DNA of 64,000 nt from a virus. Lineage: Duplodnaviria; Caudoviricetes. The notes under the pieces are model-generated. The model was not told where the DNA came from, did not search any database, and saw only the letters and a list, made by a program, of their open reading frames with translations. The position numbers and the translations under genes were made by a program. The stretch spans positions 1 through 64,000 of the IMG/VR virus record IMGVR_UViG_3300032321_000388; one strand, given 5' to 3'. Positions within the stretch are counted from its first letter, which is position 1, and every line of letters begins with the position of its first letter. Shown here piece after piece: positions 1,578 through 30,921 of the stretch.

Positions 1578-4055
1578 ATGAGCAAATTCTATACCTCTGT
1601 CGTAAAATACGGCAACAAACTCCTATTCCGCTATGTGAATAATGGAAAGTCTTATAATTCAAAAATTAACTATGGTCCTGCACTCTACGTTCCGGTAAAC
1701 AAACAGACTAATCATAGATCTCTTGATGGTTTTAATCTTCATGAGATGAGATTCGAAGATCTTAATCAAGCTCAAGAATTTGCTGATGGATATAAAGAAG
1801 CACAAAATACAAAGATCTTTGGTCAAACTCAATTTGCATATCAATATATCTCCGATGAATATCCAAAGACTATTAATTGGGACAAGGATCTAATTAAGTT
1901 ATTCTCATTGGATATCGAGACTGCAACTGAACATGGATTTCCTAATATTGACGAAGCTAATGAAGAGATCCTTCTTATTACTATCAAGGACAACTTTCAT
2001 AAACAGATCGTAACATTTGGTACAAAAGATTATACATCTACTCGTGAAGATGCTAGGTATATTAAATCATCAAATGAATCAATGATGCTTAGAACATTTG
2101 TTGACTTTTGGCAACGCAACTGCCCTGATGTTATTACTGGTTGGAATATTAATGGCTTTGATATACCATACATAGTTAACCGTATTAGATTACTACTTGG
2201 TGATGATCATGTAAAGAAGTTATCTCCTTGGAATGTGGTTAATGATAAGAAGATGTATATCAACGGAAGAGATGTTAAAGGTTATTCATTTTTAGGTATA
2301 TCAACTCTGGATTATCTTGAGCTATATAAGAAGTTTACATATACAAATCATGAATCATATCGATTAGATTATATTGCAAAATTTGAATTAAACTCTAAGA
2401 AACTTGAGAATCCATATGAGACATTTAAAGAATTCTATACTAATGATTGGGACAAATTTGTCAAGTATAATATACATGACGTAGAACTTGTCGATCAACT
2501 AGAAGATAAGATGAAACTTATCGAGTTGATTTACACTATGGCGTATAATGCTAAGATTAACTTTGAAGATGTATTCAGTCCAGTTAGAATGTGGGATGTA
2601 ATCATATATAATTATCTCAAAGAACGCAATATTGTTATTCCTCTTAAAGAAGATAATTCCAGGTCTGAAGCATTTGAAGGAGCTTATGTTAAAGATCCTC
2701 TTGTAGGTCAACATAAGTGGGTTGCTTCATTTGACTTAAATTCTTTATATCCACATTTGATTATGCAGTACAACATGAGTCCTGAAACTCTAACTGATAC
2801 TAGATTAGATGTTAATGTTGAAAAACTTCTTAACAAAGAAGATATTAATGTGCCAGTTGGTTTAGCTCTTACAGCAAATGGTTGGTGTTATAGTAAAGAA
2901 AATAAAGGTTTCTTACCAGCTTTAATGGAAGAAATGTATAACAATCGATCTAAGTTTAAAAAGATGATGTTAAAAGCAGAACAAGAGTATGAGAAGACAA
3001 AAGATCCTCAACTAGTTAAAGAGATATCTAAGTTAAAAAATCTTCAGATGGCTATGAAGATCGCGTTGAATTCAGCTTATGGAGCAGTTGGTAATAGATA
3101 TTTCAGATATTATGATCTACGTATTGCTGAAGGTATTACAACGTCCGGTCAACTATCGATACGATGGATGGCAAATAAACTTAATGATTTTTTAAATAAA
3201 ACGTTGAAAACAAAAGGTGAAGATTACGTGATAGCTATAGACACTGACTCGATCTATCTCACTTTAGAGAACCTTGTTGAGTCTACTTGTGAAGGTAAGA
3301 CTACTGAGCAAAAGATTGCTTATATGGATAAAATCTGTGAACAAGCATTCCAACCATTTATTGATGGCGGATACCAAGAACTTGCAGAGTATATGAATGC
3401 TTATGGTCAAAAGATGCAAATGAAACGAGAAGTACTTGCCGATAAAGGTATTTGGGTAGCTAAGAAGCGATATGTATTAAACGTACATAATTCCGAAGGA
3501 GTACAATATGCAAAACCTAAGATTAAAGTTATGGGTCTTGAAATGGTCAAATCATCGACACCTGCAGTCGTCCGTGAGAAACTCAAAGAGGCATTGGAGG
3601 TTATCCTCCATGAAGATGAAGCGGCAGTTCAGACATTTGTCAAAACCTTTAAAAAGAAATTCAGCAAGCTCAGTATCGAGGACATCTCTTTTCCTAGATC
3701 GATTTCCGATATAGAAAAATATTCAGGTACTCCAATATATAAGAAGGGTACTCCAATGCATGTTCGCGGAGCTTTATTGTTTAATCATTATGTAAAACAA
3801 AAAGGTCTAGCTAAAAAGTATCAACCAATTGGGAATGGAGATAAGATTAAATTTGTTTATGTCAGATCTAATAATCCATTTAATGAGAATGTGATAGCAT
3901 TCAATTCTGTGTTACCAAAAGAATTTGGTTTACATCAATATATAGACTATGACTTACAATTTGAAAAAGTATTCCTAGATGCTATGCAAATTGTTATTCA
4001 ACCGTTAGGATGGCATGCTGAAGAGGTTTCTTCTCTTGAGTCCTTTTTTGCTTAG
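1578..4055 (+). CDS. 43: family B DNA polymerase (gp43)
   Basis: DIET exonuclease motif, SFDLNSLYP, KxxxNSxYG, DTDS, and C-terminal clamp-binding SLESFF. Confidence 0.98.
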   Translation: MSKFYTSVVKYGNKLLFRYVNNGKSYNSKINYGPALYVPVNKQTNHRSLDGFNLHEMRFEDLNQAQEFADGYKEAQNTKIFGQTQFAYQYISDEYPKTINWDKDLIKLFSLDIETATEHGFPNIDEANEEILLITIKDNFHKQIVTFGTKDYTSTREDARYIKSSNESMMLRTFVDFWQRNCPDVITGWNINGFDIPYIVNRIRLLLGDDHVKKLSPWNVVNDKKMYINGRDVKGYSFLGISTLDYLELYKKFTYTNHESYRLDYIAKFELNSKKLENPYETFKEFYTNDWDKFVKYNIHDVELVDQLEDKMKLIELIYTMAYNAKINFEDVFSPVRMWDVIIYNYLKERNIVIPLKEDNSRSEAFEGAYVKDPLVGQHKWVASFDLNSLYPHLIMQYNMSPETLTDTRLDVNVEKLLNKEDINVPVGLALTANGWCYSKENKGFLPALMEEMYNNRSKFKKMMLKAEQEYEKTKDPQLVKEISKLKNLQMAMKIALNSAYGAVGNRYFRYYDLRIAEGITTSGQLSIRWMANKLNDFLNKTLKTKGEDYVIAIDTDSIYLTLENLVESTCEGKTTEQKIAYMDKICEQAFQPFIDGGYQELAEYMNAYGQKMQMKREVLADKGIWVAKKRYVLNVHNSEGVQYAKPKIKVMGLEMVKSSTPAVVREKLKEALEVILHEDEAAVQTFVKTFKKKFSKLSIEDISFPRSISDIEKYSGTPIYKKGTPMHVRGALLFNHYVKQKGLAKKYQPIGNGDKIKFVYVRSNNPFNENVIAFNSVLPKEFGLHQYIDYDLQFEKVFLDAMQIVIQPLGWHAEEVSSLESFFA

Positions 4056-5194: not shown

Positions 5195-5542
5195 ATGGCA
5201 GAGCAAAAAGAATCAATAAAAGTTCTACAAGAATGTGCAGAACTTCAACTTAAAAAGTCTAACGACTATCAAAATCCAAACTCAAGAATTAAACAGGCAG
5301 ACTACTATCCTCGTGGAGTAGCAACTATTCTTGATACAATCTATGGTAAGGTACTTCGTGCCTATTCCGTCATGGAAGCCATGGAAAACGATCCAGACTA
5401 TAATCCAAATTTTGAATCTATCGAAGATTCGTTTAAAGATATGATTAACTACGCATCCTTTGCAGTTGCCTATACAAGAGGTAAAATTGAAGGTCAAAAA
5501 CCAGATCGTGACTTTGTTAATAAACCTAAAAAGGTAATATAA
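5195..5542 (+). CDS. DUF1599/Nmad1-like nucleotide-modification-associated all-alpha protein
   Basis: KKxNDY...K..R...ESIEDSFKDMINYA pattern; adjacent to the dCMP hydroxymethylase. Confidence 0.65.
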   Translation: MAEQKESIKVLQECAELQLKKSNDYQNPNSRIKQADYYPRGVATILDTIYGKVLRAYSVMEAMENDPDYNPNFESIEDSFKDMINYASFAVAYTRGKIEGQKPDRDFVNKPKKVI

Positions 5543-6231
5543 TGAGTACCGTATATGGTGTAAGTAATATTAGAAACATCTTTAAAGAAAAATTAAAGAT
5601 GGAAGAATTTGTTTATGATAAGACTGGAGTTAAAACAGTCGAGATCATGAATGCTGCATTCTTTGCAAATCAACCAGCAATCTTTGGTACAGTCAATGAA
5701 GACTATGTTAAAAGAGAATTAGATTGGTATAAATCTATGTCTCTTAATGTAAATGATATTCCTGGTGGTCCTCCAGAAATCTGGAAGATGGTTGCATCTA
5801 CTTCTGGCCGCATTAATTCAAACTATGGTTGGTGTATATATTCTAAAGAGAATGGTTCACAGTTCATAAAAGTTGTAGATGAACTAGCCCGTAGTCCTGA
5901 TTCTCGTCGTGCTGCAATGATCTATACAAGACCAACCATGCATGATGATTATAATACTGATGGTATGTCTGACTTCATGTGTACTAACACAGTCCAATAT
6001 TTAATCAGAGATGGAAAGCTACATGCAATGGTCTACATGAGATCAAATGATGCAGTTTTTGGTTACAAGAATGATTATGCGTGGCAAAAACATGTATTAC
6101 TTGAAGTATGGGAATACTTAAGAAAAAACTATAAACATTTAGTAGATCTTAATATAGGTGATATCTATTGGAATGTAGCATCTCTTCACGTTTATGAAAG
6201 GCATTTTAAGTTTATCGATGGCAGCGATTAA
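5542..6231 (+). CDS. 42: dCMP hydroxymethylase (gp42)
   Basis: Near-identical blocks to T4 gp42: DKTGVKT, RELDWYKS, INSNYGW, DSRR, GMSDFMCTNTVQYLIRD, MRSND.FG.NDYAWQK (Asp at the dCMP-specificity position), SLHVY.RHF. Confidence 0.93.
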   Translation: MSTVYGVSNIRNIFKEKLKMEEFVYDKTGVKTVEIMNAAFFANQPAIFGTVNEDYVKRELDWYKSMSLNVNDIPGGPPEIWKMVASTSGRINSNYGWCIYSKENGSQFIKVVDELARSPDSRRAAMIYTRPTMHDDYNTDGMSDFMCTNTVQYLIRDGKLHAMVYMRSNDAVFGYKNDYAWQKHVLLEVWEYLRKNYKHLVDLNIGDIYWNVASLHVYERHFKFIDGSD

Positions 6232-6673
6232 TAAATGGTATAAGCGATACCTTAAACTCGCAAAAGAAATAGCCACATGGTCTAAGGATCCAAACACACA
6301 GGTTGGAGCAGTGGTAGTTGGATCTAAAGGTCAGATCTTATCTCAAGGTTATAATGGATTTCCACGTGGAATATCTGATTTAAGCAAGAGATTATCGGAT
6401 AGAGATGTAAAACTATCTTTGATAGTTCATGCAGAGATGAATGCTATATTCAATGCTTCGTATTCAGGTGTATCATTAGATGGATCAACAATATTCATTC
6501 ATGGTTTACCAGCATGTTCAGAATGTGCAAAGGGTATTATCCAAGTAGGTATTAAAAAAGTAGTGGTATCAAAAGAATGTATAGAAGCTAGACCTCATTG
6601 GAATGATTCATGGAAAAAATCAATAGCTATGTTTGCTGAAGCTGGCGTTGCGGTATTTGTTATCAATGAATAA
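6218..6673 (+). CDS. cd: dCMP deaminase
   Basis: SKDP.TQVGA, GYNG, HAEMNA and CxxC zinc motifs. Confidence 0.93.
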   Translation: MAAINKWYKRYLKLAKEIATWSKDPNTQVGAVVVGSKGQILSQGYNGFPRGISDLSKRLSDRDVKLSLIVHAEMNAIFNASYSGVSLDGSTIFIHGLPACSECAKGIIQVGIKKVVVSKECIEARPHWNDSWKKSIAMFAEAGVAVFVINE

Positions 6674-7217
6674 TATAAAAATTATTAAGACTGGTATTAA
6701 TGTCTCAAAGATATTAAAACAACTTGATCAGTATCCAGAAGATTGGAATGGTCAGAAAAAAGTAGATAATACAGGATCATTATTAAATAGAGGTTATGCT
6801 GATTTACCAGTAGGCGTACTTCAACTTGTAATGGGAGTTGTGACTAAAGTAGAAGATCACGCTGAAGATTCAGAACTTTGTGTAAAAACTCCAGCATACA
6901 ATCATCATACAGAAATGATCGGCTTCTTAAAAAGAAACTTTAAAAAGTTTGATAGATGTGGATTCCTATCTCTTGCTCCAGGTGGAGAAGTTGGACAGCA
7001 CATTGATGAAGGTAAATATTATCAAACACGAGATAGATATCATTTAGCTATTAAAGGCAAATATAGATATACTGTAGGCGGAGAATCTTATGATGTAGAA
7101 CCTGGAACTCTACTATGGTTTAATAATAAACTTATGCATGGTACAGAAGTTCTTGGTGATGAAGTTAGAGTAACTTTTGTATTTGATGTACCCCATTCAA
7201 AAAATAGGAGAATATAA
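6666..7217 (+). CDS. Asp/Asn beta-hydroxylase-like 2OG-Fe(II) oxygenase
   Basis: HID, RYHL, WFNNKLMH and R..FVFD cupin motifs. Confidence 0.75.
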   Translation: MNNIKIIKTGINVSKILKQLDQYPEDWNGQKKVDNTGSLLNRGYADLPVGVLQLVMGVVTKVEDHAEDSELCVKTPAYNHHTEMIGFLKRNFKKFDRCGFLSLAPGGEVGQHIDEGKYYQTRDRYHLAIKGKYRYTVGGESYDVEPGTLLWFNNKLMHGTEVLGDEVRVTFVFDVPHSKNRRI

Positions 7218-10827: not shown

Positions 10828-12852
10828 ATGAAGAACTATAGACAACTCATACGAGAATTGCCTTCCAAAACTGTCATTATGGCAGTAGGAAGCTTTAATC
10901 CTCCAACGGCAGTCAATGAGATGACATTCAAGCTTGTTAAAAAGCTAGTCGAATCTCATAATGCAGAACATGTAATCTTCATCACAGAAAATAAGAACGA
11001 TCTTCCTGCGGACAGGAAGATCCATTTTCTTAACCTTATGTTTAATGGACTTAACTTTGTTCCGTTAACAGAAGGTAATCTTGCCGAAGAAATTGGTAGT
11101 TTAAAACGTAGATATAAGAATGTTGTTGTAGTAACTTCAGAAGAGAAATCTAAGCTATTTGAATCTATGTCTGTGGTTACCGCTCCAGTTGATTCAAGCG
11201 CCTCAAAGATCAAATCACATGTATCAAAAGGTGATTACACCTCATTCAAAGCAGCTATGCCTACATCTTTCAGAGATATTGATGCACGTCGTTTAATGAA
11301 TGAAATGAGACAGTCTTATGGTCTAGAACTTATTAAAGAAGATGTTAGATTCAGTATTGATTCTCTCAGAGACAAATACTTCAAAGGCGAGATCTATCAG
11401 ATCGGTGATATTGTCGAGTCAGCAGGTTCTCAATACGAAATTATGGATCGTGGTTCTAATTATCTAGTTGTTGTAGATAATACAGGTAACCTTCATCGCA
11501 AATGGGTCAAGGATGTTTCATTAGTAGAAGCAGTTAAGAAACCTACAGGTGAACTTAAGAAAGCTTGTTGGAAAGGTTATACTGCAGTTGGTCTTAAAAC
11601 AAAGAACGGTAGAAAAGTTCCTAACTGTGTTCCAGAATCTGTACTAAACCCAGCAGACCCACATAAAGATTATGCTGAAAAAAGTAAAACACTACAAAAC
11701 TTATCAGGCAACAAAGATGTAGATCAAAAAGCTGTACAACAAAGACGGTTAGATCTAGACAAAGAATATAGTAAACTTAAAGAAGAAGTATTTAGCTATA
11801 AAGGTTATATACCTAAGAACCTTAATAGTGAGTTGGTAGAAGCATTTAAGCTTGCAGCAATAGACTCTAAAGATCCTGTAGCTATGCTTAATGCTATCAA
11901 GACAACTGATACGTACTTACAATTACATGGTAAGATTGGTGACAATCCAGATATCAATCAACTTAAGACATATAAAGACGCTCACATCAAAGCTACTGAA
12001 GCTTTACAAAAGATTGGTGTATATGATACTAATGAAGAGAATGCAGATACTAAGCTAGCAAGAAACGTATTAACTTATCAGGACTTCATGAAAGCTGGTA
12101 AAGAACATATGCCTGAAAATTCAGAGAAGTATGTGGGAGAACCTCACACAACTCCTGGTCATACGCTTGCTACACGCCACCATCTACGTAGACAAAAGAT
12201 TAAGTATGTACATGAAGAAGTACAAATCAATGAAGATGCCAAGTCATTAAAAGCTCAAGCTGATAAACATACAGAACATGCTGTTGCTGCAAATAGAGCA
12301 GGTGATGATGAGAAAGTTAGATACCATCAAGCTCAAGTAGCTAAAATTAAAGCTAAGTTATCAAAGTTAACTGAAGAATCTATTGATGAGATCTCTCAAA
12401 AAACTGCTGGTAGTTATTTAGATAAAGTTACTAAACAGCAAGTATCTAAACAGGGTATTCAACCAAACATGTATGACAAACTTCCTAAGAATAGACAAAA
12501 GGGAGTTAGCAATGCACTTAATAGATTACAAGTAGATAAAGAAGGTAAACCAGTACATCATTTAGTTTCTAAAGAAGACTATATTAAAGGTGATTTGATG
12601 GATGAAGATTTTGCTTCTAAATTTTATGCAGAAGGCCATGGTGGAGAGATTGGTGACGGTATTGGCGATGAAAAGATTAAAAAGGTTAAAACACTTCCGC
12701 CAAAATTAGTTAAGAATGATGATAAGCGTTTAGGTGGTGGTACAAGAGATCATACATTCTCAGCATTTATGGAAAAACAAAAAGTTAAAACAAAAGAAAA
12801 TGCTGATTATAAGTTTACGGACTTAATGAAGCACCAACAAACTGGGGAATAG
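10828..12852 (+). CDS. putative internal head protein with a degenerate cytidylyltransferase-like N-domain
   Basis: CTS-like N-terminus MKNYRQLIRE; GSFNPPT without the HxGH histidines; CWKGY...VPNCVPE module; many L/I-x-E sites; late promoter. Confidence 0.6.
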   Translation: MKNYRQLIRELPSKTVIMAVGSFNPPTAVNEMTFKLVKKLVESHNAEHVIFITENKNDLPADRKIHFLNLMFNGLNFVPLTEGNLAEEIGSLKRRYKNVVVVTSEEKSKLFESMSVVTAPVDSSASKIKSHVSKGDYTSFKAAMPTSFRDIDARRLMNEMRQSYGLELIKEDVRFSIDSLRDKYFKGEIYQIGDIVESAGSQYEIMDRGSNYLVVVDNTGNLHRKWVKDVSLVEAVKKPTGELKKACWKGYTAVGLKTKNGRKVPNCVPESVLNPADPHKDYAEKSKTLQNLSGNKDVDQKAVQQRRLDLDKEYSKLKEEVFSYKGYIPKNLNSELVEAFKLAAIDSKDPVAMLNAIKTTDTYLQLHGKIGDNPDINQLKTYKDAHIKATEALQKIGVYDTNEENADTKLARNVLTYQDFMKAGKEHMPENSEKYVGEPHTTPGHTLATRHHLRRQKIKYVHEEVQINEDAKSLKAQADKHTEHAVAANRAGDDEKVRYHQAQVAKIKAKLSKLTEESIDEISQKTAGSYLDKVTKQQVSKQGIQPNMYDKLPKNRQKGVSNALNRLQVDKEGKPVHHLVSKEDYIKGDLMDEDFASKFYAEGHGGEIGDGIGDEKIKKVKTLPPKLVKNDDKRLGGGTRDHTFSAFMEKQKVKTKENADYKFTDLMKHQQTGE

Positions 12853-21390: not shown

Positions 21391-22410
21391 ATGTTATACA
21401 TCGATGCAAAATATGTAGGTCAGATTTCGTACAAGTTACGTAACTTTAAGAAAAAAAATGACTATTATTGGAACTTCAGTTGCCCTATCTGTGGTGACTC
21501 AAAGAAAAACATATTAAAAGCTCGTGGTTATGTATTTAAACATGACCAAAGACTAGTATATAAATGCCATAATTGTGGCTTTAGTTCAAACATTGGAAAT
21601 CTGATCAAGCATCTAGATCCTATACTATATAATGAATATGTTCTGGAGAGGTATAAAGAGAACTCATCCAAACATAATGATCATGTAAAACTAGAAGATA
21701 CTTCTATACATATCAATCCAGAACCTATTCTTTATGATTCTATATTGGATAATCTACAAAGGATTGACACACTCGATCTAGAACATCCAGCAAAACAATA
21801 TGTAGTTAATCGTAAGATTCCATCAGATAAATGGGATCTACTTTACTTTGTGTCTAAGTTTAAGACATGGTCTAATAGTATTAAGTATCAGTTTACAAAT
21901 ACAGAAAATGATACTCCACGCCTTGTTATACCGTTCTTTAACGAGGATGGTAAATGTTTTATGTATCAAGGTAGAGCTTTTGGTAAAGAGCAACCTAAGT
22001 ATATTACAATTAGACTAGATGAAAAAGAAGAAAAGATTTTTGGTGTAGATCGACTCGACTATTCAAAATGTATCTACGTAGTCGAAGGTCCTATTGATTC
22101 TATATTTGTACCAAATTCTATTGCAATTGGTGGAGCAGGATTTGATATCCCATTTACACAAGGTATCAAGACTAATGCAACATTAATTATGGATAACGAA
22201 CCAAGATCTAAAGAGATATGTAAGTTTATCGAGAAGCTTATTAATGAAGATTATTCTGTTTGTCTATGGCCAGATACTGTACAAGAAAAAGATGTTAATG
22301 AAATGATCATGGCTGGTAAGTCAATAAATCAAATTATGGAAACCATAAATACCAATACATTCCAAGGTATGGAAGCAAAACTTAAATTTACTCAATGGAG
22401 AAAATGCTAA
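21391..22410 (+). CDS. 61: DNA primase (gp61)
   Basis: CPICGDS...CHNC zinc finger, VEGPIDS TOPRIM, DNEPR, KDVNEM. Confidence 0.96.
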   Translation: MLYIDAKYVGQISYKLRNFKKKNDYYWNFSCPICGDSKKNILKARGYVFKHDQRLVYKCHNCGFSSNIGNLIKHLDPILYNEYVLERYKENSSKHNDHVKLEDTSIHINPEPILYDSILDNLQRIDTLDLEHPAKQYVVNRKIPSDKWDLLYFVSKFKTWSNSIKYQFTNTENDTPRLVIPFFNEDGKCFMYQGRAFGKEQPKYITIRLDEKEEKIFGVDRLDYSKCIYVVEGPIDSIFVPNSIAIGGAGFDIPFTQGIKTNATLIMDNEPRSKEICKFIEKLINEDYSVCLWPDTVQEKDVNEMIMAGKSINQIMETINTNTFQGMEAKLKFTQWRKC

Positions 22411-22901
22411 TGGATTATAAGATTATTGATAACGCATTACCTGAAGAAGAGTTTTATAAAATAAAAAGTTTAATATTTAATCAAATATTTCCTTGGTATT
22501 ATAACGACTATGTTGCTCATGAATATGATAATAGTTCAACTGGATATTTTATTCATGATTTTTATAATTTTGATAAAAATCCAATGGTTGGAAGTAATTT
22601 TACATCAATTTTACCAATTCTTGCTTTAATACAGCCTAGAAGTTTAATGAGGGTACGAGCTAACCTATATTTACGAACTTCTGAAATAGAATATCATGAC
22701 AAACATGTAGATAAAAATTATGACCATAATGGAGCAATACTTTATCTTAATACTAATAATGGATGCACCGTACTTGAAGATGGAACAAAAATTGAATCAT
22801 TAGAAAATAGAATACTGTTATTTAATCCCGGCAAACTTCATTCATCTACTTCGTGCAATGATCAATCGTATAGATCAAATATTATTATTAACTACTTTTA
22901 A
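22410..22901 (+). CDS. 2OG-Fe(II) oxygenase
   Basis: H.D, AILYLNTNNG.T, NR.LLF, H.S, R..I.INYF. Confidence 0.8.
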   Translation: MDYKIIDNALPEEEFYKIKSLIFNQIFPWYYNDYVAHEYDNSSTGYFIHDFYNFDKNPMVGSNFTSILPILALIQPRSLMRVRANLYLRTSEIEYHDKHVDKNYDHNGAILYLNTNNGCTVLEDGTKIESLENRILLFNPGKLHSSTSCNDQSYRSNIIINYF

Positions 22902-22904
22902 ATT

Positions 22905-23762
22905 ATGAAAATATTAATTACAGGAGTTACTGGATATATTGGATCTACTTTAGCAAAGATCTTATTTGAACGTGGTCATCATATCGTAGGTCTTGATATT
23001 CGATGGGATCAAAATGATGTAATAAAATATTGTCATAGGATATTAGTTAAAGACGTAACTCGTCATATTAATGATGAAGACTATGATATAATCGTCCATC
23101 TTGCTGGTTTAATCCAAGTAGAAGAAAGTGTTAGATTCCCATCTAAGTATTATGGTACTAATTTAGGTGGAACACTAAATATGTTAAGGCAACAAGGTAA
23201 TCCACACTTTATCTTTGCATCTACAGCAGGCGCTTTTGATCCAGCAAATCCATACGCAAGATCAAAGATTGCAGCTGAAGATATCATTAAAGAAAAATCA
23301 AATAACTATACTATATTTAGGTTCTTTAATGTTGCAGGATCCGATGGAGAGAATCGACAAGTTGGAAGATCCTCTCATCTAATTAGAATTGCTGCTGAAG
23401 TTGCAGCAGGTAAAAGAAAGGAAATGCAAATTTATGGAAACGATTATGATACTCCTGATGGTACTTGTGTTCGCGATTATATTCATGTGGTTGACCTTGC
23501 TACGGCTATCGCTGATACGATTGACCATGGAGCCTTTAACACGCCGTATGAATGTATTGGATCAGGAAAAGGATACTCAGTCAAAGAAGTTATTTCAGCG
23601 ATGGAAAGTATTACTGGACCGCTTAATGTAAAGATTGGCGAAAGGCGTGCTGGAGATCCTGCAAAATTATCTATTGATAATCAATTTAAGCTTTTAAAAC
23701 CTCAATATAGTTTATATGATATGTGTCAGACAGCTTATTATGCGGAGTTATCAAGAAAATGA
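22905..23762 (+). CDS. galE: GalE-like NDP-sugar epimerase (extended SDR)
   Basis: ITGVTGYIG, YARSK, RFFNVAG, GNDYDTPDGTCVRDYIHVVDLA, RRAGDPA. Confidence 0.88.
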   Translation: MKILITGVTGYIGSTLAKILFERGHHIVGLDIRWDQNDVIKYCHRILVKDVTRHINDEDYDIIVHLAGLIQVEESVRFPSKYYGTNLGGTLNMLRQQGNPHFIFASTAGAFDPANPYARSKIAAEDIIKEKSNNYTIFRFFNVAGSDGENRQVGRSSHLIRIAAEVAAGKRKEMQIYGNDYDTPDGTCVRDYIHVVDLATAIADTIDHGAFNTPYECIGSGKGYSVKEVISAMESITGPLNVKIGERRAGDPAKLSIDNQFKLLKPQYSLYDMCQTAYYAELSRK

Positions 23763-24793
23763 ACGCAATAGATCTAGTTGGTGGTAAGTTAACTAATTCA
23801 GAATATTCTCATAAAGCGGGTTGGGCTTATATGAGAGCATGTCAGTTGCAGCAAGCTACTGGAAAAGAATTTAAAGTATTACATAATGGAGAATCCTGGG
23901 ATGACTATGATACAGTATATCTATATCATGGTATGGAATTCCAAGGTTCATTGAATCTATTTGGAGGCGCAACTGAAGAATCTGCCAAGTACTTTGAAAG
24001 ACTAGCAACAACTAACGCTGGTTTAATCTCGCTTGATATACCAATGCCAGATTATGGAGAACTCTGTAAAGGTAGATTATCTGCATGTGATGACTATTGG
24101 AGAAATGTAGATTGGAATGCTGTATCAGCCAAATGTAAACAAATTCCAGATACAAGGAATCCATTAATTACAGACAAGTTAGTTATTGGAGACAGTCATG
24201 CATTCTCTGTATATCAGTCAAGATATAATGTTATTCGCAAGGATGCTAGAACTCTTCGTGGTGTATTAAAGAAAACAATTAAAAAAGAAATGATAGATCA
24301 TGGTATTGACCCGCGCGATATAAATACCATTACCACTTATTACGGTAACATTGATATTAGACATCATTTAATGAGAGAGACTAATCCTACTGGAGAAATT
24401 GATCTGTTACTTGCTGAATATGAGAAACAACTTAAAGAACTTGGTATTAGGAATGTTGAAGTAGTAAGTCCTCTTCCTATTGAAGATGAATCTCGTAGAT
24501 TGCCAAAGACTGGATATTTTAAAAATACTCCGTTCTATGGTAGTCAAATAGAAAGAGCTGAACTAGCTAATTATTTTAGTCATCAATTAGCTAGAATTTG
24601 TGAAAGAAATGGTTGGAATAATTTTACATGGCCTAATGAATGGTATACAATAGTACCTTTAGAGTACATGAAAACTTATATGGAAAGACCTAAGTCGGTT
24701 CACTTAGCTCCAAAATTTCATCGTTGGAATTATTGGAAGAACGAACCAAATGTAATAGAAGTACAATCATCATTAAACTCATTTTTTGAATAA
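23759..24793 (+). CDS. hypothetical protein: beta-glucosyltransferase-like N-domain plus SGNH-like C-domain
   Basis: DYD...SLNLFGG...LDIPMP resembles T4 BGT DYD...SINFFGG...TDIRLP; C-terminal GDSH, GNID and SVHL resemble SGNH blocks. Confidence 0.45.
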   Translation: MNAIDLVGGKLTNSEYSHKAGWAYMRACQLQQATGKEFKVLHNGESWDDYDTVYLYHGMEFQGSLNLFGGATEESAKYFERLATTNAGLISLDIPMPDYGELCKGRLSACDDYWRNVDWNAVSAKCKQIPDTRNPLITDKLVIGDSHAFSVYQSRYNVIRKDARTLRGVLKKTIKKEMIDHGIDPRDINTITTYYGNIDIRHHLMRETNPTGEIDLLLAEYEKQLKELGIRNVEVVSPLPIEDESRRLPKTGYFKNTPFYGSQIERAELANYFSHQLARICERNGWNNFTWPNEWYTIVPLEYMKTYMERPKSVHLAPKFHRWNYWKNEPNVIEVQSSLNSFFE

Positions 24794-24857
24794 GGTCCTA
24801 CTCTTGGGAAACCAGGCCAAATTTGACCTTCAAATAAACTGATATAAAGGAGACAAT

Positions 24858-26132
24858 ATGTCTAAAATTAAAGTAGCAATTATTGGCGTAGGCAACTGTG
24901 CCAAATCTCTCGTTGAAGGTATTCAGTACTATATTGAAAATCCAGACGACAAAGTAGGTCTAATGTATTCAGACATCGGTGGATATACTGTAAATGATAT
25001 TGAATTTGTTTGCGGTTTTGATGTGGATATTCGTAAAGTTAATCACCCATTAAAGGATGCTTTAAGAGCATTACCAAACTGCGCAATGGATCATGTGTTT
25101 GATATTACTGAAGCATGTGTATCTAAGGATGCAATGGTTTATTCAGGTCCGCTACTAGATGGCATAGCTCCACACATGTTGGACTACCCAGAAGAAGTAT
25201 CATTCAGGATCGGTGCTATTCCAGCTGAACCATTTGATCGTGTAGTCGATCTATTAAAATATCATAAGGTAGATGTTATCATTAATTATTTACCAGTTGG
25301 TTCAGAAGAAGCAACTAAGTTTTATGTAGATGCAGCGATCAAAGCAAAATGCCATTTCATTAACTGTATTCCTACATTAATCGATTACGAAGTTGCTCAA
25401 GAAGTAGAACAGCGATTTATTGATAATGGTTTAACAATCGTTGGTTCTGATATGAGATCAGGTTGGGGTGCTTCACGTTTATCTGAAGTATTACAGGGAG
25501 CAATGTTAGATTCTGGTTTAATGGTTACACAACATATTCAAATGAACATGGCTGCAGGTACAACTCAAGGTCAAGAAAATACCCGCACTGGTAGAACAGC
25601 AAATACTGACTTCTTGAATATGGCTAAGGAATATCGTTTAGAATCTAAACACATCTCTAAAGAGAACGTACTTAAAGGACAAAACATTGTTCGTGATGAA
25701 TCTATTGCTGGCATGACTCTTTATGCAGGTCCAAGTTTAACAGTGTTACAGAAACCAGGTGGTACATATGTTGGTTCAGATAATAAGATTGCCAATCTTG
25801 ATATAGTTGCATATGGTTTTGGTGGAGCACGTTATGAATTAACAGCACGTTTATCCGTACAAGATTCTCCAAACTCAGGTTCAGTTGTGGTATCAGCAAT
25901 TCGATTCTGTAAAGTTGCTTCTGAAATGGGTATTGTAGGTTATTTAAGAGGTGCTTCAGCATGGACTCAAAAATCTCCTCCATTACAAATGAAGACAGAA
26001 GATGCAAAATATGAATGTGATGCTTTAGCTCGTCGACGTTTTACTGAGTTGACTGAATTACAACAATCAAATAAGAATCCAAAAGCTAAAAAATTACCAT
26101 ACACATTTAATAAAGCAGTACTGGACTATTAA
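24858..26132 (+). CDS. ino1: myo-inositol-1-phosphate synthase (Ino1)
   Basis: KVAIIGVGNCAKSLVEG, INYLPVGSEEA, FINCIP, NTDFLNM, L.VQDSPNS; AAGGAG SD. Confidence 0.9.
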   Translation: MSKIKVAIIGVGNCAKSLVEGIQYYIENPDDKVGLMYSDIGGYTVNDIEFVCGFDVDIRKVNHPLKDALRALPNCAMDHVFDITEACVSKDAMVYSGPLLDGIAPHMLDYPEEVSFRIGAIPAEPFDRVVDLLKYHKVDVIINYLPVGSEEATKFYVDAAIKAKCHFINCIPTLIDYEVAQEVEQRFIDNGLTIVGSDMRSGWGASRLSEVLQGAMLDSGLMVTQHIQMNMAAGTTQGQENTRTGRTANTDFLNMAKEYRLESKHISKENVLKGQNIVRDESIAGMTLYAGPSLTVLQKPGGTYVGSDNKIANLDIVAYGFGGARYELTARLSVQDSPNSGSVVVSAIRFCKVASEMGIVGYLRGASAWTQKSPPLQMKTEDAKYECDALARRRFTELTELQQSNKNPKAKKLPYTFNKAVLDY

Positions 26133-26506
26133 TGAATAGTTTTGATATTGACGGTGTTATATACATTCGTAAGGGCCTGATCGGAGTTAGACCTGGTCCC
26201 GATGATGTTATTATTACTGGTAGATCTATTGATGAAGAACCTGAAACTAAAGAAATGCTTGAGTCTGCAGGTATTTTTAATACAGTATTTTATAATCCTA
26301 CAAACTTTGATAATAAATCTAGAGCAGGTTCAGGAGTTCATAAGGCAATGATTCTTAATGCTCTTAAAGAAACTGGAAAGGATATTCAAATTCATTTTGA
26401 AGATGATCCAATTCAGATTGCTGAAATTAAAAAACATGCTCCTTGGGTTAACATTGTACATCTAGATCATGACTTGACCTATAAGGAAAATATGAGACAT
26501 GTATGA
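26132..26506 (+). CDS. minimal HAD-family phosphatase
   Basis: FDIDGV, ITGRS, HK, HFEDD. Confidence 0.8.
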   Translation: MNSFDIDGVIYIRKGLIGVRPGPDDVIITGRSIDEEPETKEMLESAGIFNTVFYNPTNFDNKSRAGSGVHKAMILNALKETGKDIQIHFEDDPIQIAEIKKHAPWVNIVHLDHDLTYKENMRHV

Positions 26507-27566
26507 GAAGTATCTCAACATCGAGAAATTTAAAGACTTTGAGCATTTTCTAGTAAAGGTTAATGAAAGAACTGAATGGCAATTTGGTCTTCGTGACAAG
26601 TATGAAAATGATGATTCAGTAGATCCAGCATTAAATGCTGACGTTGAGTATTTTGGTTTCAATATTCTGCAAGATGATCGAATGAGATATATCATTGAGA
26701 ATATAGTAACTGTTCCTACTCTGTCTATGCCTAATAAAATAGGTAATACAATTATATCTCACTTCTATGGAGCTCGAGGTATTCATGGATTGGTCACTGG
26801 TATATCAGATGTTAAGCAAGCCCATGTTGATTTTGAAAGAATCGGCAAAGGAGATGATGATTACCTGAATGAAATAAAAAGATATATAGATATAGGTAGG
26901 CAACAAAAGCAGAAGTTCTATGGTACAACTGAGTTGCATACGTCTCTCCAGACAGCAGCTAGAAACTATTGTAGAATTAAGTATAATGATGCAAATAGAA
27001 AAGCTACTCTGGCGGATATTATTGAATGGATATCTAGCTGGACTATCGATGGTACTATAGATAATATTATAGAGAATGCAAGTTCTCTTAAAGCAATGTT
27101 TGATATTCTTACTTCCAAACCTGGAATTGGAGAATATTATGGGTATCACTGTGCTACTTCAAACTCAGTAAACCCATATTTACCTTTCCATCATGATGAA
27201 AGCTTTTGTGCTCCTGGTCCTGGTGCTAGGGAATCATTAGAAAATATATTTGATAAATGGACTGGTAAGAAGTTTCCTTATGCAGATATGGTTGTATGGT
27301 TAAGAGATAACCAAGAACGACTTTTTGAAAGAATAAATATTCATCCACACTTTCATAATTTTGAAGTTGGTAATGTTAAAGTATTTGAACATAATCAAAA
27401 CAATATGAAGGTATATGGAACAGAGGTAGGTTTATGTCAATATGGAGTTTACTGTTGGCTTAAAGCAAATCCTCATTTGATATCAAAACGCAAGATTGCC
27501 AGAGTAAACACGATTCAAGAAGGTGGTGTTTGTGCTGGTGCAACATTAAATGATTTTATAGGATAA
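26499..27566 (+). CDS. aGPT-pyrophosphorylase / amino-acid:DNA-transferase-like HhH-fold DNA base-modifying enzyme
   Basis: HhH-like PGIGEYYGY, downstream PGPGA..SL, and a C-terminal E..LCQY motif. Confidence 0.6.
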   Translation: MYEKYLNIEKFKDFEHFLVKVNERTEWQFGLRDKYENDDSVDPALNADVEYFGFNILQDDRMRYIIENIVTVPTLSMPNKIGNTIISHFYGARGIHGLVTGISDVKQAHVDFERIGKGDDDYLNEIKRYIDIGRQQKQKFYGTTELHTSLQTAARNYCRIKYNDANRKATLADIIEWISSWTIDGTIDNIIENASSLKAMFDILTSKPGIGEYYGYHCATSNSVNPYLPFHHDESFCAPGPGARESLENIFDKWTGKKFPYADMVVWLRDNQERLFERINIHPHFHNFEVGNVKVFEHNQNNMKVYGTEVGLCQYGVYCWLKANPHLISKRKIARVNTIQEGGVCAGATLNDFIG

Positions 27567-27567
27567 T

Positions 27568-27987
27568 ATGAAAATAGGTTTTACAGCTTCTACATTTGAT
27601 TTATTACATGCTGGTCATATAAGTATGTTAAGAGAAGCAAAAGAACAATGTGATTATTTAATATGCGGTTTACAAGTCGATCCATCAGTCGATCGAGCAA
27701 ATAAAAATTCACCGATTCAAAGTATAGTAGAAAGACAAGTACAATTATCAGCGGTAAAATACGTTGATGAAGTTATTGTCTATAGAACTGAGCAAGATCT
27801 GGAAGATATTCTCCAGATGTTTCACATAGATATTAGAGTACTTGGTGATGAGTATAGAGATCAAGACTTTACTGGTAAAGATATATGTAAGAAGCGCGGT
27901 ATTCAATTGCATTTTAATAAGAGAGACCATCGCTTCTCAACAACAGCATTAAGATTACAAGTAGTAGAAAAAACTAAAAACAAATGA
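27568..27987 (+). CDS. TagD-like cytidylyltransferase
   Basis: FDLLHAGH (HxGH), VKYVDEV, GDEY, RDHRFSTT. Confidence 0.9.
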   Translation: MKIGFTASTFDLLHAGHISMLREAKEQCDYLICGLQVDPSVDRANKNSPIQSIVERQVQLSAVKYVDEVIVYRTEQDLEDILQMFHIDIRVLGDEYRDQDFTGKDICKKRGIQLHFNKRDHRFSTTALRLQVVEKTKNK

Positions 27988-28511
27988 TAAAAAAACACGA
28001 AATACAAATATTTGATAATTTGCTTTCATTTAAAGAACGAGCATTTCTATATAAAGCAGGGTTAAATTCTCGGTATACACTAGGACCAGCTGGATCTCCT
28101 ATTTTAGAAAATATGGCAATATATGCTTTTTCTTCAATGTTTAATGAAGATGAATTAAAAACACATCCTATATTTAATATAATAAGAAATAATTCTAAAT
28201 TAACAGAAATTATTAATCAATATAATATAGATAAAGCATGGTATAATTTATCCGCTCAATCAGAAATCAATTTTATTCATACACACTATCAAGATAAAAT
28301 TTTATTATATTATGTTAACTTAGAATGGCATAATGATTGGTTAGGTGAAACAGTTTTTTATAAAGAGAATGGAACTGATATAGACACATTTATGCAATAT
28401 ACGCCGGGAAGATTTATATTATTTGATGGAGATCATCCACATGTAGTTAGACCTCATAAAGGGGTTCAATATCGTTTCTCATTTGCAATAGCATTAAATA
28501 AAAAGGATTAA
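27984..28511 (+). CDS. 2OG-Fe(II) oxygenase
   Basis: LYYVNLEW...W.GET.F, PGR.ILFDG..PH, RFSFA. Confidence 0.75.
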   Translation: MIKKHEIQIFDNLLSFKERAFLYKAGLNSRYTLGPAGSPILENMAIYAFSSMFNEDELKTHPIFNIIRNNSKLTEIINQYNIDKAWYNLSAQSEINFIHTHYQDKILLYYVNLEWHNDWLGETVFYKENGTDIDTFMQYTPGRFILFDGDHPHVVRPHKGVQYRFSFAIALNKKD

Positions 28512-28513
28512 TA

Positions 28514-30298
28514 ATGACCGAAGAAGTTCATGGTATTAAGGTTGACTATTCACGAGATTCATTGTTTGATGAATTAGGAATGCTTAGATTAAAAGAGTCA
28601 TATATGGCGGATGGAGAAAAATCTCCGCAAGAAAGATTTGCATTTGTATCAAGTAAATTTTCATCAGATAAATTCCATGCACAGCGATTATATGATTATT
28701 CATCAAAGCATTGGTTATCGTATGCTACTCCTATACTATCATTTGGTAGATCTAAACGGGGTTTACCTATATCATGCTTTTTAAATTTTATTGAAGATAC
28801 CGCGGAGGGTCTAGTTGAAAACTTATCTGAAACTAATTGGCTATCTATGCTTGGGGGTGGTGTTGGTATTGGCTTTGGAATCAGGTCTGCTGATGATAAG
28901 TCTACTGGCGTTATGCCTCATCTTAAAATGTATGATGCTAGCTCTCTTGCTTATCGTCAAGGGCGTACTCGTCGCGGCAGTTATGCTGCTTACTTGGATA
29001 TTTCACACCCTGACATTTTAATGTTTCTTGAGATGCGTAAACCTACAGGCGACCAAAACATGCGTTGCTTGAACTTACACCATGGAGTTAATATTCCTGA
29101 TGCATTCATGGAAATTATAGAAAAATGTATGTTAGATCCAAATGCTAATGATGATTGGGAATTAAGAGATCCTCATTCAGGCGAACTAAGAGAAACTGTT
29201 TCAGCAAAAGAATTGTGGCAAAAACTATTAGAACTTCGTATGACTACAGGAGAACCGTATCTGCATTTCATTGATGAATCTAATAGAAAGATGCCGCAAT
29301 GGTTAAAGGACAAAGGTTTAAAAATACATCAGTCAAACTTATGTTCAGAGATTATTTTACCTACTAACGAAAAGAGAACAGCAGTTTGTTGTTTATCAAG
29401 TTTAAATTTGGAGTATTATGATGATTGGAAAACTGATAGCTTATTTCTTAAGGATGTTGCAGAGATGCTGGACAATGTGCTGCAATATTTTATTGACACT
29501 GCTCCTTCTGCTATTAAGCGGGCTCGTTATTCTGCTTCTCGCGAACGGAGTATTGGTATTGGTGCTCTTGGCTGGCATGCTTTATTGCAGCGAAAAAATA
29601 CTCCCTGGGAAAGTGCAATGGCAACAGGACTTAATAAACAAATCTTCGCACACATACGAACAACTCTTAATAAAGCTAATAAGCAATTGGGTAAAGAACG
29701 TGGTGAAGCTCCTGACGCCGAAGGTACTGGAAACAGGTTTTCTCATCTTATGGCTATTGCTCCCAATGCTAGCTCTTCTATCCTTATGGGAAATACTTCC
29801 CCATCAATAGAACCTTTTAGAGCTAATGCTTATCGACAAGATACTTTATCTGGTTCTCATTTACATAAGAACCAATATTTAGATAAGATTATTAAGGAAA
29901 AAGCTAATGATAAGTATGATGAGATTTGGAGTTCAATTATTGCGAATGATGGTTCAGTTCAACATTTAGATATACTAGATGAATGGCAAAAAGATGTGTT
30001 TAAGACTTCTATGGAAATTGACCAACGATGGGTTGTCCAACACGTAGCAGACCGCCAAGAGTTTATTGATCAAGCACAGTCATTAAATGTATTTTTTAGA
30101 CCTGACAGTCATATTAAATATGTACATGCAGTTCATTTCCAAGCTTGGAAACAAAAGCTTAAGACTATGTACTACTGTCGTTCAGATAAGATCGCTAAGG
30201 CAGATAAAGTATCTAAACGAATTGAAAGAGAAGTTATTGCTGAGATCGATTTGAAGGCAATGACTGAAGGTGAAACTTGTTTGGCTTGTGAGGGATAA
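28514..30298 (+). CDS. nrdA: ribonucleotide reductase class I alpha subunit (no ATP cone)
   Basis: PISCF, SNLCSEI, VCCLSS, APNASSS, MYYCR and C-terminal CLACEG. Confidence 0.95.
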   Translation: MTEEVHGIKVDYSRDSLFDELGMLRLKESYMADGEKSPQERFAFVSSKFSSDKFHAQRLYDYSSKHWLSYATPILSFGRSKRGLPISCFLNFIEDTAEGLVENLSETNWLSMLGGGVGIGFGIRSADDKSTGVMPHLKMYDASSLAYRQGRTRRGSYAAYLDISHPDILMFLEMRKPTGDQNMRCLNLHHGVNIPDAFMEIIEKCMLDPNANDDWELRDPHSGELRETVSAKELWQKLLELRMTTGEPYLHFIDESNRKMPQWLKDKGLKIHQSNLCSEIILPTNEKRTAVCCLSSLNLEYYDDWKTDSLFLKDVAEMLDNVLQYFIDTAPSAIKRARYSASRERSIGIGALGWHALLQRKNTPWESAMATGLNKQIFAHIRTTLNKANKQLGKERGEAPDAEGTGNRFSHLMAIAPNASSSILMGNTSPSIEPFRANAYRQDTLSGSHLHKNQYLDKIIKEKANDKYDEIWSSIIANDGSVQHLDILDEWQKDVFKTSMEIDQRWVVQHVADRQEFIDQAQSLNVFFRPDSHIKYVHAVHFQAWKQKLKTMYYCRSDKIAKADKVSKRIEREVIAEIDLKAMTEGETCLACEG

Positions 30299-30921
30299 TG
30301 TTTATAAATCGTACAAAAAGATATGTATATTTAAGAGTACCAAAAACAGGATCTACATCTATACATAACTATTTGATAGATAATAAAAAAGATGATGATG
30401 TTTCTTATTCATTCATGAGAGAATATAAATTTGATAATCATAATAGTTCTTTTAAAAATGCTCATCCTAACTTGCAAGACGCTATTAACAGTAACTTATT
30501 AAAAATAGAAGATTTGTCAAATTATAAAATTTATGGAATAATAAGAAATCCAATAGATAGATTTATTAGTATGGTTTACCATTTCTATAAAGGAAATAAA
30601 AAAAAACATCAAAATGATGTAGTTAGAGATGCTATTAATGATTATAAACTAGGTATTTATCCATATCACGCACAAAAAGATTGGTTAATTTATAACAATA
30701 ACCCAATTAATAATATCTTTTTATATGAAAATATTAATAAAATGCTTACTAGTATTTTAGGAACTGATGTAAATATTAAATATAATCATCGATCTAAATA
30801 TAGAACAAATCATAATTATAATGATTTAGAATTAGAATTACAAAATACAATTAAAGAAATATATTACGAAGATTGGCAAATATATAATATGTATAAACAA
30901 AAAGAAGTTAATTTAAAATAA
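30298..30921 (+). CDS. sulfotransferase-like protein
   Basis: PAPS-binding PKTGSTS and RNPIDRFIS motifs; Y.EDW tail. Confidence 0.7.
   Translation: MFINRTKRYVYLRVPKTGSTSIHNYLIDNKKDDDVSYSFMREYKFDNHNSSFKNAHPNLQDAINSNLLKIEDLSNYKIYGIIRNPIDRFISMVYHFYKGNKKKHQNDVVRDAINDYKLGIYPYHAQKDWLIYNNNPINNIFLYENINKMLTSILGTDVNIKYNHRSKYRTNHNYNDLELELQNTIKEIYYEDWQIYNMYKQKEVNLK

Follow-up and report, generated by a model that had tools for sequence, protein, structure and literature searches.

A four-gene phage cassette points to a candidate inositol-bearing DNA base

The hypermodifications known from phage DNA attach sugars, amino acids or polyamines to its bases. Here we analyse a string of genes found in positions 1 to 64,000 of the IMG/VR virus record IMGVR_UViG_3300032321_000388 (Duplodnaviria; Caudoviricetes), a stretch of 64,000 nucleotides hereafter called the window. 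An initial annotation, made from the sequence alone, had proposed that six of these genes decorate hydroxymethylcytosine (hmC) with inositol or inositol phosphate. Our follow-up points to a cassette of four genes, which encode an SGNH enzyme, an inositol-phosphate synthase, a HAD phosphatase and an HhH-GPD-like enzyme, as the candidate source of an inositol-bearing DNA base, and no description of an inositol- or cyclitol-bearing base was found in the searchable literature. That diverse phages inherit these four genes as a single unit, with their catalytic residues kept, is strongly supported by the data presented below.

Organization of the locus

The source record corresponds to a marine T4-like phage of 118.6 kb, rated 74% complete. 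The window has a GC content of about 34%, and almost all of its genes lie on the + strand. The cassette belongs to a co-directional string between the primase and nrdA genes, where neighbouring genes overlap or are separated by gaps of 1-64 nt. The six open reading frames (ORFs) of the initial annotation were all recovered in this interval, as follows:

21391-22410: primase (phrog_47 at 1.9e-81)
22905-23762, + strand: GalE-like short-chain dehydrogenase/reductase (SDR), an epimerase or dehydratase, accessory gene (PF01370, 2.5e-31)
23759-24793, + strand: two-domain SGNH enzyme, core gene 1 (SGNH fold and invariant blocks)
24858-26132, + strand: enzyme of the myo-inositol-phosphate synthase family, core gene 2 (PF01658)
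26132-26506, + strand: minimal capless HAD phosphatase, core gene 3 (HAD motifs)
26499-27566, + strand: HhH-GPD-like DNA base-modifying enzyme, core gene 4 (PF18723 family)
27568-27987, + strand: cytidylyltransferase-like nucleotidyltransferase, accessory gene (PF01467, HxGH motif)
28514-30298: nrdA

A promoter scan showed no enrichment (58 found versus 55.6 expected), and no convincing internal terminator was detected in the locus.

A core of four genes

Conservation was followed in 85 viral or metagenomic loci, made up of 80 IMG/VR loci with relatives of the HhH enzyme and five more from other assemblies, whose HhH enzymes are 43-99% identical to that of the window. A homologue of the synthase occurs in the flank of 83 of these loci, one of the phosphatase in 80 and one of the SGNH enzyme in 77, and the genes mostly run from the SGNH enzyme through synthase and phosphatase to the HhH enzyme. 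Several of the core-gene misses (e.g., L077 and L079) fall at contig ends, the remaining misses not having been checked one by one. The epimerase and the cytidylyltransferase are found in five loci each, and either of the oxygenase-like genes flanking the string in none. In relatives with an HhH enzyme 88-91% identical to that of the window, nothing but the four core genes lies between primase and nrdA, and those at 95-99% identity that keep both accessory genes miss both oxygenase-like genes. From the core-gene counts and the close relatives free of accessory genes it follows that the unit of inheritance is the four genes. The six-gene operon originally described thus stands for its core, but not for the epimerase and the cytidylyltransferase as members. 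A second lineage (L081 and L084) also has this pair.

The cassette is a common one, present in 235 IMG/VR stretches and in hundreds of protein clusters, and its recurrent neighbours are genes for DNA polymerase B, ribonucleotide reductase (RNR), dUTPase/DCD and DUF6378. Tailoring genes vary with the lineage (epimerase with cytidylyltransferase, GT4, acetyltransferase). Moreover, 40 of the 85 loci have a gene for an FkbM-type methyltransferase inserted between phosphatase and HhH enzyme genes (e.g., L050 9308-9979, PF05050 at 5.5e-8), which hints at an O-methylated cyclitol in the lineages that carry it.

The HhH-GPD-like enzyme

The product of 26499-27566 contains the motifs PGIGEYYGY and PGPGA, from which the initial annotation had predicted an HhH fold related to amino-acid:DNA transferases. 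The only Pfam family that it matches is PF18723 (57.4 bits, cut-off 25, E 2e-15), called HMUDK_hel or "5-hmdU DNA kinase, helical domain", which is also matched by 35 of 35 aligned homologues, and one homologue is annotated by NCBI as a "putative DNA base hypermodification protein". An AlphaFold2 model built from the homologue alignment (predicted local distance difference test, pLDDT, of 90) shows the two-lobed HhH-GPD-like helical fold of the amino-acid:DNA transferases. In an exhaustive VIA structural alignment against 48,161 chains, rank 1 fell to 8z2m, the 5-PmdU (5-phosphomethyl-dU) glycinyltransferase (PUGT) of Pseudomonas phage PaMx11 (Z 9.6, root-mean-square deviation (rmsd) 4.2, 229 residues aligned). 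Ranks 2-3 went to two DUF2419 proteins of queuine salvage and ranks 4-23 to twenty HhH-GPD DNA glycosylases. A Foldseek search of the PDB gave no match for the model at E<=1e-3, the transferase being placed first only by the exhaustive search, and a Z of 9.6 can be reached by chance for helical folds. The fold assignment appears credible because the superfamily ranking is uniform and the PF18723 match agrees with it, and the anticipated fold was therefore found. At the sequence level, a profile of the family retrieved nothing meaningful among PDB sequences, and hhalign related the family, at 97.4% probability over 245 columns, to phiMAM1 gp083, a PF18723 protein that stands alone in phages of the ViI type.

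Amino-acid:DNA transferases depend on a Glu and, four residues further on, a Cys. The latter adds to C6 of the base, after which the phosphate is lost and the exocyclic methylene is attacked by an amine or a hydroxyl (PMC8989533); in PaMx11 gp46 (PUGT) the essential residues are E243 and C247 (PMC11472151). The HhH enzyme of the window reads E309-V-G-L-C313, with E309 and C313 invariant in 35 sequences (E-x-x-L-C), where PUGT reads E243-T-I-L-C247, and the distance from the glycine of the HhH hairpin is 98 residues in the former versus 95 in the latter. From motif and spacing, and not from a residue-level superposition, we infer that Glu309 and Cys313 are the equivalents of E243 and C247.

The SGNH enzyme

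The true start of the second non-metabolic enzyme is the ATG at 23759, consistent with homologues of 343-346 amino acids (aa). Its AlphaFold2 model (pLDDT 90) comprises an N-terminal alpha/beta domain (residues 1-130) and an SGNH/GDSL catalytic domain (136-331), the latter aligning with 7e16 (Z 12.8, rmsd 3.3, 167 residues) and with many esterases and O-acetyltransferases (Z 12.8-11). The blocks G144-D145-S146-H147, G196-N197 and H315 are invariant in 37 homologues, so that both the fold and the Ser, Gly, Asn and His blocks are those of the SGNH/GDSL hydrolases and acyltransferases. The protein has no Pfam match, and the rows of the fold search are dominated by the SGNH domain, with the N-domain outside them; an ESM Atlas search with the N-domain gave no lead. 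PF09198, the family of the T4 beta-glucosyltransferase, had no match in the genome, and neither did it in the control genomes. The double label given to this gene, beta-glucosyltransferase-like and SGNH, is thus borne out in its second half, whereas the first half found no support.

Polymerase-like tails

The two non-metabolic enzymes end in short tails that resemble the tail of the phage DNA polymerase, gp43, which is included here as a comparator:

4029-4052, + strand: tail SSLESFFA of the gp43 DNA polymerase (ORF 1578-4055, matching phrog_262)
24767-24790, + strand: tail SSLNSFFE of the SGNH enzyme, resembling that of gp43
27540-27563, + strand: tail ATLNDFIG of the HhH enzyme, resembling those of gp43 and the SGNH enzyme

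The tail of the HhH enzyme is carried by a disordered linker (pLDDT below 50 for residues 337-355). Moreover, the three tails co-vary across lineages: in L026 all of them end in FF plus one residue (...DFFG, ...NFFS, ...SFFD), in one large clade they read ...SLF, ...ALF, ...TLF or ...QLF, and in loci with no polymerase tail available the two enzyme tails agree with each other (...LLEF; ...LIEF/...LIVF; ...EDFF/...DSFF). In T4 and RB69 the gp43 tail binds the sliding clamp. By analogy, the SGNH and HhH enzymes would work on DNA at the replisome, and the base-flipping HhH fold in one of them together with the polymerase-like tails in both gives strong support to the two being DNA-directed. Long forms of the HhH enzyme, of 485-531 aa (e.g., L007/L008 8001-9464), lack the short tail and have in its place a linker rich in Lys, together with a domain of about 70 aa that resembles a winged helix.

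Predicted inositol synthesis

The gene at 24858-26132 had been labelled a myo-inositol-1-phosphate synthase, and its product falls in that family by PF01658 (34.5 bits, cut-off 27) and by its similarity to INO1 of M. tuberculosis (1gr0), at 7e-56 over residues 3-386. Residues N249, D251, K264, K268, D336, N339 and K372 are invariant in 69 distinct homologues, as are the motifs SK..SK, DSPNS, K(S/T)PP and N.D, so that both family membership and the catalytic residues agree with the label. The small protein encoded at 26132-26506 likewise deserves its description as a HAD phosphatase: D5-x-D7-G, T29-G-R, R64 and D91-D92, which represent motifs I-IV, are invariant in 64 homologues. It matches phrog_415 at 5.7e-8, and no Pfam or PDB sequence match was found.

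Predicted supply of hydroxymethylcytosine

The base that the cassette would act on is suggested by a gene located upstream in the window:

5542-6231, + strand: gp42-type dCMP hydroxymethylase (T4 dCMP hydroxymethylase, PDB 1b49, at 2e-82)

This match agrees with the gp42 assignment made initially. The protein is about 60% identical to T4 gp42, by eye over the alignment, and keeps the catalytic Cys (SDFMCT) when aligned to 1b49. Many "gp42-like" enzymes of Straboviridae make 5-hydroxy-dCMP instead, for which the diagnostic feature is an Asn at the position of E. coli ThyA D169; by the criteria for homologues of thymidylate synthase (TS), Asp at N177 denotes a dCMP substrate, position L143 is acidic, and Asp at D169 means that the enzyme is not a 5-hydroxy synthase (PMC13326640, 2026). 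The window gp42 reads MRSND...KND, with Asp at the L143, D169 and N177 positions, and is therefore a true hydroxymethylase, so that the phage should make hmC. The Asp at the D169 position led us to reject 5-hydroxycytosine as the modified base.

The same pattern holds beyond the window. A TS homologue adjoins the cassette in 24 loci, with identities down to 28% to the window gp42, and Asp occupies the L143, D169 and N177 positions in every one of them. The triad is also found in three long records that bear the cassette (two rated complete, one at about 50%) and in phage 44RR2.8t; canonical ThyA paralogues in these genomes have Leu and Asn, as expected. The co-occurrence of synthase, HhH enzyme and gp42 in related phages, on which the initial proposal depended, is thus strongly positive (83/85 loci with the synthase; 24/24 adjacent enzymes of the dCMP-hydroxymethylase type). 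Altogether, these data support a hypermodification cassette tied to hmC, whose most conserved companion is inositol synthesis.

Searches of the 118.6-kb record, 74% complete, gave no match to an alpha- or beta-glucosyltransferase or a GT4 enzyme (the two T4 families being searched without a positive control), in agreement with the initial reading that no canonical glucosyltransferase is visible. No gp56-type dCTPase was found in the record. The same is true of a P-loop kinase of the AAA_33 type, as had been noted for a kinase of hmU- (hydroxymethyluracil) or hmC-DNA, and no kinase occurs among the recurrent neighbours in the 85 cassette loci.

Directly upstream of gp42 lies a short gene:

5195-5542, + strand: small all-alpha protein, possibly an Nmad1/DUF1599-like nucleotide-modification-associated protein (weak assignment; PF07659 at 2.2e-4, below the cut-off; phrog_1485)

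A dCMP deaminase gene is found directly 3' of gp42, and is itself directly followed, in the same gene block, by one for a cupin or Asp/Asn-hydroxylase-like protein (window 6633-7217, PF05118 at 1.5e-8).

Parts of the cassette in other phages

In the Aeromonas phages 44RR2.8t and 31, homologues of the SGNH (2e-90) and HhH (2.7e-21) enzymes are fused in a single protein of 795 aa, ORF233c. Both phages carry a gp42 that is 59% identical, and were described as having genes 42 and 56 and no glucosyltransferase (Petrov et al., PMC2993671). No synthase was found in either of them; a sodium:solute symporter of the sugar-transporter branch adjoins the fusion gene. With the symporter standing in place of synthase and phosphatase, we argue that the co-substrate is a free, unactivated polyol.

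Neither the SGNH nor the HhH enzyme was found in the synthase-bearing phages Ralstonia RP13, Caulobacter Cr30, Stenotrophomonas Moby and Vibrio Va1. In Cr30 (L003, KF301602.1, 2789-7314) a PF18724 transferase (1.3e-52) and a weakly matching TET-associated-glycosyltransferase-like protein lie just upstream of the synthase and the HAD-like phosphatase (129 aa), the transferase being two genes away; the sole thymidylate synthase of this phage is canonical. Cr30 may thus hold a second, thymine-directed inositol pathway. In Moby (L009, 7207-12621) the synthase and a neighbour of 123 aa are placed between FolE and QueC/DpdA-like/QueE, within a 7-deazaguanine DNA-modification cluster.

Accessory and flanking genes

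The first gene of the string was correctly described as GalE-like. Besides its PF01370 match, the product shows the GxxGxxG and YxxxK motifs of SDR enzymes, scores 213 bits with TIGR01179 (4.7e-63), below the equivalog cut-off of 262, and has 285 aa versus about 338 for GalE. Judged by these features, it is an extended-SDR nucleotide-sugar enzyme of the GalE type. The TagD-like label of the last gene is equally apt, with matches to PF01467 (4.8e-14), RfaE domain II (2.3e-24) and TagD (2.8e-19) and an LHAGH version of the HxGH motif; its nearest solved relatives are ethanolamine-phosphate (1.6e-21) and glycerol-3-phosphate (2.6e-15) cytidylyltransferases. This pair of genes probably adds an extra decoration in this phage lineage.

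Two further ORFs flank the string:

22395-22901: 5' flanking ORF (PHROG 274 match only)
27984-28511: 3' flanking oxygenase-like ORF (PHROG 274 and FlmC-family 2OG-Fe(II) oxygenases, the latter at 1.3e-14)

Because of the FlmC-family match of the second ORF, the annotation of PHROG 274 as "DNA endonuclease V" looks wrong. No mutual similarity between the two was detectable by BLASTP. They had been proposed as a pair of 2-oxoglutarate (2OG)-Fe(II) oxygenases flanking the pathway, and the family assignment is supported for 27984-28511, the other ORF having its PHROG 274 match only. As part of the pathway both were discarded, being absent from the 85 loci and even from the relatives whose HhH enzyme is 95-99% identical.

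Elsewhere in the window, a sulfotransferase-like ORF (30298-30921, PF03567 at 2.5e-10) lies between nrdA and a nuclease gene, and a protein of 674 aa (10828-12852) has PHROG matches labelled "cytidyltransferase" (phrog_395, phrog_3041) and no Pfam match.

A proposed pathway and its alternatives

Read from the genes alone, the locus appears to us, with reasonable though far from complete confidence, as an hmC-DNA hypermodification cassette that couples free inositol to hmC in the absence of a DNA kinase. The product and each of the reactions that follow are what we infer from gene content, linkage, conserved catalytic residues and DNA-directed features, all of which are observed. The synthase would cyclise glucose-6-phosphate to inositol-3-phosphate, from which the HAD phosphatase would release myo-inositol or a close cyclitol. 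Tethered at the fork of replication, the HhH enzyme would flip out hmC. Cys313 would add to C6, with Glu309 as acid, and loss of the substituent at C5 would create an exocyclic methylene, as in the amino-acid:DNA transferases. Addition of an inositol hydroxyl would then give an ether-linked 5-(inosityl-oxymethyl)cytosine. The obligatory SGNH partner would either acylate hmC to provide the leaving group, the role of the kinase in thymidine pathways, or tailor the adduct, and the GalE-like enzyme and the cytidylyltransferase may elaborate it further in this phage lineage. The complete picture, a new class of DNA base in which kinase-free PF18723 enzymes with clamp-docked tails make ether-linked myo-inositol-hmC from an SGNH-generated leaving group, widespread in aquatic T4-like phages, is put forward tentatively, its chances being in our opinion a little short of even.

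Several observations weigh against free inositol as the group attached, and against the chemistry just outlined. For every carrier, the product is a prediction from gene content. The synthase scores 223 bits with TIGR03450 (5e-66), far below the equivalog cut-off of 638, and its family includes Ari2 (PDB 6k96), which makes a different, five-membered cyclitol; moreover, the synthase is present in phages without the two other enzymes (RP13, and Stenotrophomonas phages in a 7-deazaguanine cluster). To a fold score that chance could produce and the motif-based equivalence of Glu309 and Cys313 one has to add that sequence comparison detects no similarity between the HhH enzyme and the solved transferases: hhalign of its family against PaMx11 gp46 finds nothing (probability 0.06%), and PF18724 is matched by 0 of 35 members at E<=1. 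The searches turned up neither a DNA kinase nor another evident activator of hmC, so that the leaving group is without explanation. Aeromonas phage 25 (L107, 2743-6014), in turn, has a homologue of the SGNH enzyme but none of the HhH enzyme. Where 44RR2.8t carries the symporter and the fusion enzyme, this phage has the SGNH homologue beside a UDP-galactopyranose mutase (PF03275, 5e-54) and an unknown protein of 358 aa. The role of the SGNH enzyme may therefore be tailoring instead of activation, and it may be a general tailoring enzyme of hmC-DNA.

Some of these points lead to readings in which hmC-DNA is modified and the final group is not plain inositol: inositol phosphate could be the nucleophile, with the phosphatase acting on the DNA adduct, the synthase could make another cyclitol, or an inositol intermediate could be methylated, oxidised or glycosylated. 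The low equivalog score, the five-membered-cyclitol synthase in the family, the FkbM-type methyltransferase inserted in 40 of the 85 loci and the lineage-specific tailoring genes all speak for such variants, which we nonetheless regard as rather unlikely given that the synthase shows no variation in the catalytic residues typical of inositol-phosphate synthases and that a solute symporter replacing synthesis in Aeromonas phages fits a free, unphosphorylated polyol. A related possibility, raised by the initial annotation, is that the cytidylyltransferase makes cytidine diphosphate (CDP)-inositol, from which phospho-inositol or inositol passes to hmC. The nearest solved relatives of this enzyme do act on small alcohol phosphates, its gene is translationally coupled to that of the HhH enzyme, and it travels with the epimerase again in L081 and L084; since this pair is rare, however, CDP-inositol is not the general donor. 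The cytidylyltransferase is absent next to HhH enzymes of about 90% identity, almost every locus keeps a HAD phosphatase with intact catalytic motifs, and no CDP-alcohol phosphotransferase was seen. Transfer from CDP-inositol or of phospho-inositol as the core chemistry is thus abandoned, the phosphatase and the Aeromonas symporter pointing to a free polyol, and we consider the CDP route improbable.

Other readings depart further from free inositol on hmC. The cassette could be auxiliary metabolism that modifies no DNA and makes inositol or a derivative for host lipids, osmolytes or surface glycans, with the SGNH and HhH enzymes acting on non-DNA substrates. SGNH enzymes are typically lipid or glycan esterases or acyltransferases, marine T4-like phages carry many host-like sugar genes, and the synthase occurs in some phages with neither enzyme. 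Yet the HhH-GPD-like fold and PF18723 membership, the winged-helix-like C-terminal domain of the long members, the tails that co-vary with gp43, and the proximity of the cassette to genes for dCMP hydroxymethylase, dUTPase/DCD, RNR and DNA polymerase, here between primase and nrdA, make us give this reading a slim chance. Slimmer still is the chance that the HhH enzyme targets another base such as hmU, or that it is a glycosylase-like anti-defence protein and not a transferase. All characterised relatives use 5-hmdU derivatives (PMC8989533) and the fold is common to DNA glycosylases, but 0 of 28 examined TS homologues linked to the cassette are of the dUMP-hydroxymethylase type, all having Asp at the N177 position, and the Glu-x3-Cys of the transferase type is invariant.

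Significance and comparison with known systems

If free inositol is indeed coupled to hmC, cyclitols would be a new chemical class of phage hypermodification. The adduct would be isobaric with hexose, so that routine mass spectrometry can misread it as glucosyl-hmC, and its ether linkage, unlike that of an acetal, would probably make it resistant to glycosidases and to acid. The Cys-dependent substitution at the C5-methylene would be extended from hmU to hmC, in a nucleic-acid pathway that dispenses with a DNA kinase and employs an SGNH enzyme. The pathway would explain the Aeromonas phages with gp42 and no glucosyltransferase, and is a candidate answer to the question posed by Petrov et al. 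in 2010 about the fate of hmC in phages 44RR, 31 and 25. A cassette as common as this one bears on the evasion of restriction and CRISPR in aquatic phages, and on enzyme tools for hmC labelling.

The closest parallel is the thymidine hypermodification of phages ViI, M6, PaMx11 and PhiW-14 (PMC8989533, PMC11472151). There, as is proposed for the cassette, a TS homologue installs a hydroxymethyl-pyrimidine ahead of replication, and the C5-methylene is substituted afterwards by an HhH-GPD-like enzyme with a Glu-x3-Cys dyad that uses a free small-molecule nucleophile; ViI gp247 even forms an ether, through the hydroxyl of serine. The cassette differs in that its base would be hmC instead of hmU, no P-loop DNA kinase was found, an SGNH partner is present, and the enzyme belongs to PF18723 and not to PF18724, with no sequence similarity to PUGT. 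Moreover, the nucleophile would be supplied by an inositol synthase and a phosphatase and not be an amino acid or polyamine, and both enzymes bear polymerase-like tails. With the glucosylation of hmC in T4 the cassette would share the use of gp42 and the placing of a polyhydroxylated six-membered ring, isobaric with hexose, on the DNA. No GT-B glucosyltransferase was found here, the donor would be an unactivated cyclitol in place of UDP-glucose, and an ether would join the base to a carbocycle where T4 has a glycosidic acetal.

The arabinosyl-5-hydroxycytosine of RB69 and DLP3 (PMC13326640) also involves a gene cluster, here of Straboviridae, with a TS homologue, a phage-encoded sugar-phosphate route with a small HAD phosphatase, and DNA-directed transferases. 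Those phages use a D169N 5-hydroxy-dCMP synthase, a kinase and a nucleotidyltransferase leading to UDP-arabinose, and GT-B transferases, whereas the cassette phage keeps D169, and with it hmC as the predicted base, and the core has neither kinase nor GT-B enzyme. Finally, the uncharacterised ORF233c of 44RR2.8t and 31 unites SGNH and HhH homologues in gp42-positive phages free of glucosyltransferases, as in the window, and differs from the cassette in having an adjoining sodium:solute symporter and no inositol synthase or phosphatase.

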